Shown: piece by piece, positions 1 through 3,140 of the stretch
Position numbering within the stretch: the first letter of the stretch is position 1
Layout: the number at the start of each line of letters is the position of its first letter
From: a virus
Lineage: Duplodnaviria; Heunggongvirae; Uroviricota; Caudoviricetes
Length of the DNA stretch: 3,140 nucleotides
IMG/VR virus record: IMGVR_UViG_2778261511_000014
Span: 1-3,140 of that record
Reading direction: 5' to 3' (one strand)
Program-made: the position numbers and the translations under genes
Notes under the pieces: generated by a model
Told to the model about the DNA's origin: nothing
Seen by the model: the letters and a program-made list of their open reading frames with translations, nothing else
Databases searched by the model: none

Positions 1-822
1 GCGACGCCCGTTCGTTACGATGCCCGTTCGGTCAGCACCGGTATTGCCGGACGTAGTCTGACCGCTGACCTGATTGACTGTGCAGCCGAACCGACACAGT
101 TTAACGGACGATCGCTGGTACAGATTGCGCAGGCGCTTGCTGCGCCTTTCGGCATTGAGGTGGTGAACAACGGTGCGCCGTCGGGCGTTATTCCTGATGT
201 CCAGCCTGATCACGGCGAAACGGTGATTGAGGTGATCAACAAAATACTCGGTCAGCAGCAGGCACTGACTTACGACGACCCGCACGGCAGGCTGGTGATT
301 GGCGGTATTGGCTCAACGCGGGCACATACCGCGCTGGTACTCGGGGAAAACATCCTTTCCTGCGATACGGAGAAGAGTATCCAGGAGCGATTTTCTGTTT
401 ACCAGGTGGCGGGGCAGCGTGCCGGAAACGACGATGATTTCGGTGAGGCCACCACCACCGCGCTGCGGGCCCGCACAGAGGACGCATTTATTTCCCGTTA
501 CCGTCCGATGTATATCAGGCAGACAGGGCAGGCCACGGGGGCAGGCTCTGATTTGTATGTATTCAGGCCGGTGGCGCACAAAGTGGATTTTCATATCCGC
601 GTGACGCCGGACACACCGGAAATACGGGCTGCCATCACCGCGGAGTTGCGTTCATTCCTGCTGCGTGATGGTTATCCGCAGGGAGAGCTTAAGGTATCGC
701 GTATCAGTGAAGCGATTTCCGGTGCGAACGGGGAATACAGCCATCAGTTGCTTGCTCCGGCGGACAATATCTCCATTGCAAAAAATGAACTGGCGGTTCT
801 GGGGACGATTTCATGGACGTGA
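1..822 (+). CDS. Phage baseplate assembly protein, baseplate J-like (Mu gp47 / P2 gpJ family); 3' portion only, 5' end lies upstream of the window
   Basis: The frame that starts at position 1 is open with no stop until TGA at 820-822, so the ORF-track start at 160 (a GTG) is only an internal codon and the gene enters from upstream. Composition is GC-rich, as in the neighbouring structural genes. The gene sits directly upstream of, and overlaps by 10 nt, a DUF2313/gpI-like gene, which is the conserved position of the gpJ-like baseplate wedge gene in Mu- and P2-type tail clusters. The family assignment rests on synteny and general character of the translation, not on a recognised motif. Confidence 0.6.
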
Positions 823-1397
823 CAAACGATGATTACATCCGTCTGTTGTCGGCACTGTTGCCCCCTGGTCCGGCGTGGTCAGCCAGCGATCCGGCGATTG
901 CCGGTGCGGCACCGTTATTAACCCGTGCTCATCAGCGTGCGGATGCCCTGATGCGGGAGCTGGATCCGCGCACCACCACCGAACTGATAAACCGCTGGGA
1001 GCGTCTGTGCGGCCTGCCGGATGAATGTATTCCGGCAGGGACGCAGACCCTTCGCCAGCGTCAGCAACGGCTGGATGCGAAGGTTAACCTGGCGGGTGGC
1101 ATCAATGAGGATTTTTACCTTGCGCAGCTTGCTGCCCTGGGCAGACCAGATGCCACCATCACGCGATACGACAAAAGCACGTTCACCTGCTCATCGGCCT
1201 GTACTGACGCGGTGAATGCGCCGGAATGGCGGTATTACTGGCAGATCAACATGCCAGCCGCCACCAACACCACCTGGATGACATGTGGCGATCCCTGTGA
1301 TTCCGCGCTGCGTATCTGGGGTGACACCGTTGTCGAGTGTGTGCTTAACAAACTCTGCCCGTCGCATACCTACGTAATTTTTAAATATCCGGAGTAA
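813..1397 (+). CDS. ymfQ: Phage baseplate/tail protein, DUF2313 family (YmfQ-like; P2 gpI / Mu gp48-like)
   Basis: 194-aa ORF from ATG 813 to TAA 1395-1397. The N-terminus [23 protein letters not shown] carries the Y-x-R-L-L-x-x-LLP-x-G-x-AW signature I associate with DUF2313 proteins. The length matches what I recall for E. coli e14 YmfQ. The start overlaps the stop of the upstream gene (ATGGACGTGA, 813-822), and a weak Shine-Dalgarno-like GGGGA sits at 801-805. Confidence 0.75.
1391..1394 (+). promoter_or_regulatory. Shine-Dalgarno sequence for the tail fibre gene
   Basis: GGAG lies 6 nt upstream of ATG 1401, immediately after the DUF2313 gene coding region and overlapping its stop region. 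Confidence 0.5.
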
Positions 1398-1400
1398 TCC

Positions 1401-2147
1401 ATGCATCGTATAGACACGAAAACCGCGCAGAAGGATAAGTTCGGCGCGGGTAAGAACGGTTTTACCCGTGGTAACCCCCAGACCGGCACGCCTGCCACCG
1501 ATCTGGATGATGACTACTTTGACATGTTGCAGGAAGAGCTTTGTGGCGTGGTGGAGGCATCCGGTGCCAGCCTGGAGAAGGGGCGAAACGACCAGTTGCT
1601 TACCGCGCTTCGTGCTCTGCTGTTAAGCCGCAAGAATCCGTTTGGTGATATCAAATCGGATGGCACGGTGAAAACGGCTCTCGAAAACCTTGGTTTGGGA
1701 GAAGGTGCTCCAGCTATTGGCGTTCCGTTCTTCTGGCCCTCCGCGGCAATGCCAAATACTGTAATCGACAGCTGGTCCGGTATGGTGTTTTTGAAGTTCA
1801 ACGGGGCGAAATTTTCTGCCTCTGATTACCCTGTGCTGGCGAAAGTGTTTCCTTCGCTGGTATTACCTGAAGCCCGCGGTGATTTCATTCGTATCTGGGA
1901 TGACGGGCGAGGTGCAGATGGTGGTCGCGAATTATTAAGCTGGCAGGAAGCTACAAACTTTTCTCAGTTTGCCGGGAATATAGGCGGAGGTGCGGGACAC
2001 GCAATTAACTTTCATGATGGCATCGCCGGAAATCAGCCAGGATTTTCACGATTTAATTTCACCAGTAACTCTGTGGGTGATGGTGTGAGTTTTGTTGCTG
2101 TCAGACCGCGAAATATTACATTTAACTTTCTGGTGAGGGCTAAATAA
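1401..2147 (+). CDS. Short tail fibre protein: N-terminal constant (baseplate-attachment) region fused to a C-terminal variable region with a tail-collar-like receptor-binding domain
   Basis: 248-aa ORF from ATG 1401 to TAA 2145-2147, preceded by GGAG (1391-1394) with a 6-nt spacer. Residues around 110-160 ([44 protein letters not shown]) match the pattern of the phage tail collar domain, in which a Pro/Trp-rich stretch is followed by N-G and Y-P-x-L motifs. A candidate invertase crossover site lies in-frame at codons 93-101 ([10 protein letters not shown]). The gene is followed by a tfa chaperone gene with a TAATG stop/start overlap, as in Mu S-U, P2 H-G and e14 stf-tfa. Confidence 0.8.
1678..1703. 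other. Candidate site-specific DNA inversion crossover site (Hin/Gin/Cin/Pin serine-invertase type) inside the tail fibre gene
   Basis: The sequence is CTCTCGAAAACC-TT-GGTTTGGGAGAA: two 12-bp imperfect inverted half-sites (CTCTCGAAAACC and TTCTCCCAAACC when read inward) flank a 2-bp core TT at 1690-1691. The AAACC-NN-GGTTT centre matches the crossover sites of the gix/hix/cix/pix family as I recall them. It lies about 95 codons into a tail fibre gene, the position where these systems join a constant N-terminus to alternative C-termini. Confidence 0.55.
2135..2139 (+). promoter_or_regulatory. Shine-Dalgarno sequence for tfa, embedded in the 3' end of the fibre gene
   Basis: GAGGG lies 7 nt upstream of ATG 2147. 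The fibre stop and tfa start overlap as TAATG (2145-2149), consistent with translational coupling. Confidence 0.5.
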
Positions 2148-2740
2148 TGAAACCTGTTTTTGATGAAAATGGGCTGGCTACAGTGCCGGGCGATATGCGT
2201 TGTTTTTATTATGATGCTGAAACATCTGAGTATACGGGCTGGTCTGATGAATATATTAATACTGGCGTAAGTATGCCCGCCTGTTCCACTGGTATTGACC
2301 CGGGCGAATACATTCCGGGGAAAGTGGCAGTATTTACGGGTAAGGGATGGAGCCATGAAGAAGACCACCGCAATAAGACTGTTTACTCAATCGAAAATGG
2401 CGCAGCTGTTACAGTGGATTATATCGGTGCCATCAAAGACGGTTATGTCACGATTTCAGCGTTAACGCCATACGATAAATGGGATGGTGAGAAATGGGTG
2501 ACAGACACTGAGGCACAACACAGTGCCGCAGTAGACGCGGCAGAAGCACAGCGCCAGTCACTGATTGATGCAGCAATGGCTTCCATTAGTCTGATTCAGC
2601 TGAAATTACAGGCCGGACGGAAACTGACTCAGGCAGAAACAACCCGACTTAACGCCGTGCTGGATTACATTGACGCGGTGACGGCAACAGATACCAGCAC
2701 CGCGCCGGATGTCATCTGGCCTGAACTGCCGGAGGCGTAG
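2147..2740 (+). CDS. Tail fibre assembly chaperone (Tfa; lambda Tfa / Mu U / P2 gpG family)
   Basis: 197-aa ORF from ATG 2147 to TAG 2738-2740, with GAGGG (2135-2139) 7 nt upstream. The C-terminus LNAVLDYIDAVTATDTSTAPDVIWPELPEA is the hallmark conserved C-terminal motif of Tfa chaperones (lambda Tfa ends ...[13 protein letters not shown]...). Size and position resemble e14 TfaE as far as I recall, but I cannot confirm that identity. Confidence 0.85.
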   Translation: MKPVFDENGLATVPGDMRCFYYDAETSEYTGWSDEYINTGVSMPACSTGIDPGEYIPGKVAVFTGKGWSHEEDHRNKTVYSIENGAAVTVDYIGAIKDGYVTISALTPYDKWDGEKWVTDTEAQHSAAVDAAEAQRQSLIDAAMASISLIQLKLQAGRKLTQAETTRLNAVLDYIDAVTATDTSTAPDVIWPELPEA

Positions 2741-3140
2741 GCCATTCAATATCGGGTGCTGTTGACGTATCAACACGCATCAGCAGCACACGGTATTTCT
2801 TCCATTGGGTGAGAGTTGTAGCTTCTTCATAAGTTGCGATATCAGCATCAACAGCATCCTGACGCCAGGATATTTCACTGTCAGCTTTTTCCCGTAATTG
2901 GGATTTTTTAACTTCAGCAATAGCTATTAATTCCTTTTTGGTCGGCTGAGGAATATCTATCAGTGCTGGTTTTCCATTCAGTGTTCCAATCTGTTTTCCT
3001 GGTGGAATATCCATAAATAACTTTTTATGTTCTTCCTCACTGACTATTACACCATCATCAGGCCACAGACCTGATGCCTCAAATTTTTCTTTCTCCGATA
3101 TGGGGAAAAAGCCATTTGCTTTAGCGCTCCATACGTACAT
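2712..3140 (-). CDS. Second tail fibre assembly chaperone (Tfa family), convergent with the first; the alternative (currently unexpressed-orientation) partner of an invertible fibre module
   Basis: Minus-strand ORF of 142 aa ending at TGA (complement of 2712-2714). The C-terminus [30 protein letters not shown] closely resembles the lambda Tfa C-terminus ([22 protein letters not shown]). The N-terminus [14 protein letters not shown] resembles the typical Tfa N-terminal YSAKxNxFYP motif, so the ATG at 3138-3140 may be the true start; because it sits exactly on the window edge, a longer 5' extension cannot be excluded. The region is AT-rich compared with the left half of the window. Confidence 0.8.
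   Translation of the reverse strand: [142 protein letters not shown]

Follow-up and report, generated by a model that had tools for sequence, protein, structure and literature searches.

Does a 26-bp palindrome that lies in frame within a tail-fibre gene mark one end of an invertible DNA segment and, if so, does this segment belong to a switch that the prophage can still operate? The window - the whole stretch of 3,140 nucleotides that was analysed - corresponds to positions 3-3142 of its source contig NLPK01000047.1 (L003; assembly GCA_002230835.1), which begins only 2 nt before it. The source prophage is SfV/e14-like, has a Mu-type tail and is integrated beside tRNA-Pro/yejM; the features of its fibre locus are collected in Table 1.

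Table 1. Features of the fibre locus (window positions unless preceded by L003, which denotes positions in the source contig).
Feature	Position	Strand	Remarks
Fused baseplate ORF	ends 822		Upstream of ymfQ
ymfQ / Mu gp48-like baseplate gene	813-1397	+	Pfam Phage_Mu_Gp48 (E = 8e-26); directly 5' of the fibre gene
Tail-fibre gene	1401-2147	+	248 aa
Constant N-terminal fibre part, codons 1-97	1401-1691	+	Outside the invertible segment; common to both fibre forms
Left crossover site (pix-type)	1678-1703		Half-site CTCTCGAAAACC, core TT, half-site GGTTTGGGAGAA; identical to e14, architecture of gix/cix
Invertible segment, part inside the window	1690-3140		Full segment 1748 bp, reaching window-equivalent position 3437
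Cassette 1, variable fibre C-terminus now joined to the constant part	1692-2147	+	Weak Collar match
Tail fibre assembly (chaperone) gene, partner of cassette 1	2147-2740	+	Pfam Caudo_TAP (E = 1.6e-26); 64% identical to K-12 TfaE
Second tail fibre assembly gene, partner of silent cassette 2	2712-3140	-	Pfam Caudo_TAP (E = 7.4e-32); convergent
Silent cassette 2 ORF	L003 3144-3479	-	111 aa
Right (partner) site	L003 3426-3451		TTCTCCAAAACC-AA-CGTTTATGAAAA; inverted relative to the left site
pin remnant	L003 3506-3634		41-42 codons; resolvase fragment

Direct reading of the sequence confirms the palindrome just where the original prediction had seen it. The 26 bp at 1678-1703 (CTCTCGAAAACCTTGGTTTGGGAGAA) form two 12-bp arms whose symmetry about the TT core at 1690-1691 is imperfect (9/12), and they occupy codons 93-101 of the fibre ORF (ALENLGLGE; codon 93 begins at 1677) such that the core provides positions 2 and 3 of the Leu97 codon (CTT, 1689-1691). 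The centre of the site, AAACCNNGGTTT, occurs a single time in the window, while the chance expectation for an exact match is 0.01 (2 of 200 shuffles) or 0.12 if one mismatch is allowed. Moreover, the full 26-mer is found verbatim in K-12 e14, in phage SfV and in nine other loci, always at the same position of the fibre gene, and this recurrence together with the statistics far exceeds chance. Compared position by position with gix and cix, the site consists, as they do, of two imperfectly inverted 12-bp half-sites that end in AAACC around a 2-bp core, and it matches the left site of e14 in 26 of 26 positions. The proposal of a Gin/Hin/Cin/Pin-type crossover site is thereby upheld and the element is a standard member of this already well-known family. 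Hence we are confident that it represents the left recombination site of an invertible segment of the e14 P-segment type (Pin/Gin/Cin/Hin family).

Within the fibre gene, the site also coincides with a change in kinship. The constant part is 96% identical to K-12 stfP and to phages of the SfV family with homology that ends at 1704-1710, and SfV, SfI, SfII and SfIV match the window from position 1 to 1704. The module of cassette 1 recurs in phages 606R2, 500465-2 and mEp213, where homology extends from 1626-1684 to about 2753. As it is at the left site that homology to unrelated phages breaks off, the site appears as the joint where fibre modules are exchanged, and these breaks, combined with an in-frame second cassette (see below), agree with the claim that a constant N-terminal segment is joined here to alternative C-terminal ones. 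With ymfQ just upstream, the context is that of a late tail operon which continues into the fibre gene. Our scan of L003 1-3800 found no sigma-70-like promoter (0 vs 4.4 expected), a result compatible with transcription that, like that of Mu, enters from a late promoter further upstream and by which the cassette facing the constant part would be expressed. Downstream, the succession of a fibre gene and two convergent chaperone genes is how an invertible fibre segment is laid out, and the window ends ahead of its second half: the start codon of the second tfa gene is the final triplet of the window, and in flipped genomes (see below) this gene lies directly 3' of the alternative fibre gene. The convergent tfa genes overlap by 29 bp (2712-2740), likewise K-12 tfaP and tfaE, and in the overlap both strands encode the conserved C-terminal motif (...TSTAPDVIWPELPEA on one and ...TSTAPDIEWPTPPAVQAR on the other).

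An inverted partner site had been predicted to the right, and it is present in the source contig beyond the window. Its core (AA) is complementary to the TT core of the left site (L003 1692-1693) and the distance from core to core is 1748 bp, so both sites reside inverted on the same molecule. We found the partner by reading the sequence and with a regular expression for the centre pattern. A search that tolerated up to 3 mismatches to the left 26-mer gave no match, because the outer halves of the two sites differ by 5 mismatches, and an inverted-repeat finder applied to the window alone returned chance pairs only, since the partner lies outside it. Inverting the segment in silico keeps the fibre in frame (...ALENL/GFGEGANWVML..., with the slash at the joint) and generates a 194-aa protein with a Gp53-like C-terminal domain, whose stop codon abuts the ATG of the second tfa gene. 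The anticipated minus-strand ORF for an alternative C-terminus thus exists and is in frame after inversion; in one of the flipped genomes (L004) the resulting fibre CDS is annotated at 6002-6586. Taken together, a constant N-terminus outside the segment can be joined in frame to two C-termini, each with a Caudo_TAP chaperone gene of its own. While the notion of 'two or more' fibre forms holds in that an alternative form exists (248 aa vs 194 aa), there are exactly two and none beyond. In annotations, silent cassette 2 figures as a separate 111-aa 'hypothetical protein' on the minus strand, whose first ~13 residues (MMPFARYFCIFIN) derive from the spacer between right site and pin, as in K-12 stfE, and the fibre gene itself is labelled 'integrase' in several RefSeq genomes. 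Both the 111-aa call and the 'integrase' label are probable annotation artefacts. For the equivalent short e14 product, a function after inversion has been put forward (PMC12529663).

Inversion of this segment is also seen in natural genomes. Three complete E. coli genomes, those of B1S11, VTB97448v and MINF_2E, match the modelled flipped junction (600 bp) at 99.8%, and at least 6 other complete genomes match the native junction at 99.7%, so the segment exists in both orientations with exchange at the core. B1S11 and MINF_2E harbour this very prophage, also inserted at yejM/tRNA-Pro; protein accessions and truncated recombinase are the same too. When two flipped loci (L004, L005) are compared with L003 after flipping the latter, 37 mismatches are counted over 4886 bp, as opposed to 1340 with the native arrangement. 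The half-sites have been exchanged as a crossover at the core predicts: next to the cores, native loci read ...TT-GGTTTGGGAGAA on the left and TTCTCCAAAACC-AA... on the right, flipped ones ...TT-GGTTTTGGAGAA and TTCTCCCAAACC-AA..., and the G/T SNP of the inner half-site has moved along with the segment (L004, L005). The exchange is delimited by two differences between the sites, one in the outer halves at the base adjoining the core and one in the inner halves at base six. It must therefore have taken place within TT plus GGTTT, i.e. no more than 7 bp, which points to site-specific rather than homologous recombination. In all flipped genomes examined, an IS1B insertion truncates a PH-domain gene upstream of the tail module (L004, L005 1-937). 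Because they share this insertion, the three flipped genomes may be one clone or lineage, in which case only one inversion is documented since the invertase gene was truncated (see below), and the present switching rate may be very low or zero. In addition, the insertion suggests independent decay of the prophage from strain to strain.

As for the mechanism, we envisage that a dimer of a serine DNA invertase would bind each of the 26-bp sites, the left one and its inverted partner 1748 bp to the right, cut the 2-bp core (TT on the left, AA on the same strand at the partner) and rotate the strands so as to flip the segment. With the fibre promoter and codons 1-97 outside the segment, its orientation would pick which C-terminal receptor-binding cassette is expressed, and either form - the 248-aa or the 194-aa Gp53-like one - would be made in frame and along with its own Tfa chaperone. 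Given that the prophage's own pin is reduced to 41-42 codons, the reaction would have to be catalysed in trans by the Pin-family invertase of another prophage.

It is this enzyme where the locus departs from what was foreseen. A serine recombinase of roughly 185-190 aa had been predicted and a Pin-family gene does adjoin the partner site, yet in the source it is cut to 41-42 codons, and a full-length adjacent serine invertase (about 185-190 aa, combining a resolvase catalytic domain with a C-terminal HTH) is absent there. To the right of the partner site, L003 carries in this order the pin remnant, a GmrSD-type restriction gene, tRNA-Pro and yejM. The remnant comprises residues 1-41 of PinE without a single difference, the RVSTNDQ active-site region among them; homology to pinE extends to coding nt 122 and the Pfam Resolvase match covers positions 2-48 of 145. 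A Pin protein cut this short cannot be active, and the cis invertase is broken not only in the source but also in every close relative examined. Importantly, the truncation junction is identical in native (L001, L003) and flipped (L004, L005) genomes, which indicates that at least one inversion took place after the invertase had been lost. Presumably, this inversion was catalysed in trans by a Pin-family invertase from another prophage. In line with such a source, a bait query made of the single-copy GmrSD island plus the 3' part of pinE that is missing from the remnant matched at least 2 places in 10 out of 10 carrier genomes and 1 place in many genomes that have the GmrSD island alone. The query yields a place count only, with the searches listing the best place per record, and judged by these counts the extra places seem to be pin-like genes elsewhere in the carrier genomes. 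Full-length pin is found in three related loci (L009, L010, L033). Phage vB_EcoM-689R6 also possesses a PinE-like gene that is intact, but its record, being incomplete and permuted, was of no use as an intact reference. In Shigella flexneri SFBU0723 (L015 8213-8845) both sites are kept and the pin gene looks rearranged: its residues 98-184 match PinE at 94%, while residues 1-111, which overlap in position, do so at only 54%. This may reflect a hybrid invertase or one that has been disrupted.

The DNA of the remnant, rather than its product, may still serve a purpose. We sought the enhancer via gin-pin conservation and geometry instead of scanning for the Fis consensus, which is too degenerate to be informative. 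When aligned from the right site into the invertase gene, Mu gin and pin share two identical blocks, GTATCAACAAATGACCAGAA and TGTGCAGGATG. Their centres are ~95 and ~141 bp away from the right core, and the 122 bp that remain of pin include both. In the hin enhancer, the two Fis sites are roughly 48 bp apart at these codons, and on this model the blocks may correspond to them. Their geometry agrees with the roughly 100 bp described as separating the proximal Fis site from hixL (PMC3798978), making them candidate Fis sites. Hence, blocks in the pin remnant that are putatively equivalent to the Fis enhancer may still be of service.

How much of a switch is left in the source strain? One could argue that the pair of sites is the fossil of a once-active switch whose orientation has been locked in the source ever since pin was truncated. 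Loss of an intact pin from the source and from all close relatives examined would be in keeping with this, but the identical truncation junction in both orientations places one or more inversions after that loss. Similarly, while the prophage is decaying (a 2051-bp baseplate deletion in the source and IS1 in the flipped lineage), both sites, both cassettes, the tfa genes and the enhancer-equivalent DNA are all intact. Orientation does track lineage, in that the flipped genomes share IS1, which is what rare or past events would give rather than frequent switching, and SfV and many other loci retain the site without any switch. On the other hand, inversion in trans of an e14-type segment by the invertases of other prophages has been demonstrated (PMC12529663) and, going by the place count, an extra pin-like locus seems to be present in each carrier genome. 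To our minds, a locked relic is therefore a possible but rather doubtful scenario. A further option is that the host, rather than the phage, keeps an orphan switch which only invertases from other prophages flip, with the fibre variants or the leader-plus-cassette ORF acting as receptor blockers; this we consider improbable.

Two other explanations do without an invertase altogether. The flipped arrangement might have come about by RecA-dependent homologous recombination between short inverted repeats, the palindrome being incidental, and the sites do share an inverted stretch of ~21 bp (TTGGTTT[G/T]GGAGAAGGTGCT) that could pair in principle. However, a repeat of 21 bp that includes a mismatch barely reaches, or falls short of, the length that RecA needs to recombine efficiently. 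What is more, the exchange point is confined to 7 bp or less around the two core bases of a canonical invertase site, and experiments have identified this repeat as one that Pin recombinases act on, with pinE pinQ mutants being locked (PMC12529663), all of which makes the RecA route very unlikely. We give next to no credence to the idea that the palindrome arose by chance or as a by-product of the conserved peptide ALENLGLGE and has no role in recombination. Although the site is coding and the peptide is conserved in many Enterobacterales fibres (including loci without partner or invertase), it is the DNA, not just the peptide, that is identical to a validated site, and an exact match to the centre is hardly expected by chance (see above). 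With a partner, an in-frame silent cassette and a clean natural inversion at hand, this reading is already refuted. We therefore favour the view that the source-strain locus is an orphan switch, intact in cis, whose present activity would depend on foreign invertases. Because pin has been lost and about 2 kb of baseplate genes deleted, it should not be seen as a working host-range device. Of the 'phase-variable host-range switch' that had been proposed, the inversion locus with a natural flipped form stands, while the host-range function belongs to its ancestry.

Among known systems, the e14 P segment (reportedly treated by Plasterk and van de Putte in 1985) shares the layout of constant part, cassette 1 plus tfa, convergent tfa' plus cassette 2, right site and pin. 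In K-12 (L002), the identical left site occupies the same place in stfP and the right site is just upstream of pinE; the right site here differs from the latter at one base of its inner half. The published e14 repeats are TTGGTTTGGGAGAAGG and CCTTCTCCCAAACCAA (PMC12529663), of which window 1690-1705 equals the left one, the right repeat having one substitution (CCTTCTCCAAAACCAA). Identity between the two loci amounts to 96% in ymfQ, in the constant part of the fibre and at the 5' end of pin; homology at this level runs from ymfQ to five bases beyond the left site, where it stops, and is picked up only within the 3' half of the first chaperone gene and, a second time, at the right site with the 5' end of pin. 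Differences concern the chromosomal site (icd for e14, tRNA-Pro/yejM here), the length of the segment (1829 bp in e14 vs 1748 bp here if measured alike; given as 1797 bp for e14 in PMC12529663) and the cassettes, with amino acid identities of ~40% between cassette 1 and the variable part of StfE, 64% for TfaE and 33% for TfaP. Also, the StfE-like cassette is the expressed one in the source, whereas StfE is silent in the K-12 reference, and an intact pinE followed by mcrA in e14 contrasts with a truncated pin followed by the GmrSD gene here. By location, cassettes (33-64% identical), truncated pin and GmrSD in place of mcrA, the source locus does not qualify as the e14 P segment proper. It is rather an e14 P-segment-type system with a different cassette pair, so the biology is, as had been acknowledged from the outset, already known. 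For e14 itself, PinQ, PinR and PinE were found to invert the P segment, which is locked in a pinE pinQ double mutant, and inverted P segments occur in 33% of 562 E. coli genome sequences (PMC12529663). Both e14 orientations coexist in clonal MG1655-derived cultures according to sequencing and PCR, in keeping with Pin inversion of e14 (PMC4272514).

The Mu G segment resembles our locus in that its fibre gene contains a 26-bp site centred on AAACC-NN-GGTTT, constant and variable fibre parts are fused in frame, the chaperone genes are paired and convergent, and the invertase gene lies immediately outside the right site. Besides, gin and pin show high conservation at the 5' end of their coding regions, and the baseplate genes (gp44-48) of the source are Mu-like. 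With the same pattern search, the gix sites (TTATCCAAAACC-TC-GGTTTACAGGAA and TTCCTGTAAACC-GA-GGTTTTGGATAA) were located exactly on the annotated boundaries of the G segment. Mu differs in its core (TC/GA vs TT/AA here), its constant part (169 codons vs 97), the size of the G segment (about 3 kb) and an intact Gin, and the head and lysogeny modules of the source are of the SfV/lambdoid rather than the Mu type. The P1 C segment with Cin, which we inspected in P1-like JL22, has the same architecture and also the TT/AA core (CAATCCTAAACC-TT-GGTTTAAGAGAA and TTCTCTTAAACC-AA-GGTATTGGATAA), and the JL22 invertase is 83% identical to PinE. In contrast to our locus, however, cin is on the opposite side (upstream of S), the segment is larger, the fibre much longer and the host element a plasmid prophage. 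SfV, SfI, SfII and SfIV are the closest cultured phages to the left half of the window (96-97% over 1-1704); SfV and its relatives carry the identical 26-mer in orf21 together with a single cassette, a single tfa and neither partner nor invertase, hence no switch. Finally, control in trans, i.e. of e14 by PinQ/PinR and of the Salmonella H segment by Fin, is similar to what we propose for the source, as an invertase encoded elsewhere flips the segment. The local enzymes (PinE, Hin) are intact in those cases, whereas loss of the one in the source would make it totally dependent on foreign enzymes.

Some observations concern the prophage around the switch. Relative to intact relatives, the source lacks 2051 bp of its baseplate region. 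This deletion (window 531-547) creates the fused ORF that ends at 822 by joining a Mu gp44-like hub gene to the 3' end of gp47/J, with gp45, gp46 and most of gp47 gone, and its junction falls in an imperfect 17-bp direct repeat (GGCCNCGGNGGCAGGCT), the last 8 bp of which are perfect. It does not correspond to the jayE arrangement of e14: K-12 shares only the part right of the junction, not the deletion. Divergence from the near-identical prophage L001 is patchy, with ~5% over window 548-1348 (J 3' end and ymfQ), 8 SNPs over 2248-2448 in the N-terminal half of the first tfa gene and 0-1 per 100 bp elsewhere, a pattern suggestive of patches acquired from related prophages by recombination. In the region right of the window (L003 3640-5700), a GmrSD/DUF262 type IV restriction gene immediately follows the pin remnant, a hairpin with a 13-bp stem (L003 3681-3710) lying between the two, and the GmrSD island is present in 296 E. 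coli genomes. Since GmrSD after pin mirrors mcrA after pinE in e14, the invertase-side end of the prophage looks like a slot for anti-phage genes.

How general the site is, and how diagnostic, can be seen from our survey of 34 loci that encode the constant fibre N-terminus (one genome per species). In about 17 of the 34, the constant part finishes with a site of the same type, with representatives from Escherichia/Shigella, Citrobacter, Scandinavium, Lonsdalea, Yersinia, Kluyvera, Edwardsiella and Enterobacter. The site is accompanied by an inverted partner within 6 kb in only 4 of them, and by a full-length pin in only 3. At SfV (L043 7729-7754) and at L011, L012, L019 and L020, neither a partner site nor a second cassette nor an invertase was found within 6 kb despite an identical 26-mer. 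Such switchless 26-mers are either kept by the protein sequence or leftovers that invertases acting between prophages could target. In view of SfV and other loci like it, a bare site is no proof of a switch or of its activity; what makes the case for a switch at the source locus is its partner site, a silent cassette that is in frame after inversion, and natural genomes with the flipped arrangement.

What does this mean for the biology of these prophages? There is no new mechanism or family here but a new cassette allele of a known system, and the evidence for inversion after truncation, catalysed in trans, is its only mildly interesting aspect. In practical terms, the site explains why a fibre gene is called 'hypothetical protein' or 'integrase' and its silent cassette a separate 111-aa protein, as well as inversion differences of 1.7 kb between closely related assemblies, and the 26-mer alone must not be taken as a live switch. 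If the orphan switch were indeed kept by the host, fibre variants or the short ORF would block surface receptors against incoming phages, as has been reported for e14 StfE2, and a single invertase could coordinate several prophage loci of one genome, or rearrange DNA between them, by way of their copies of the 26-mer. In any case, the locus offers a natural example of an invertible segment that has outlived its own recombinase and yet flips, consistent with the cross-prophage experiments on e14.
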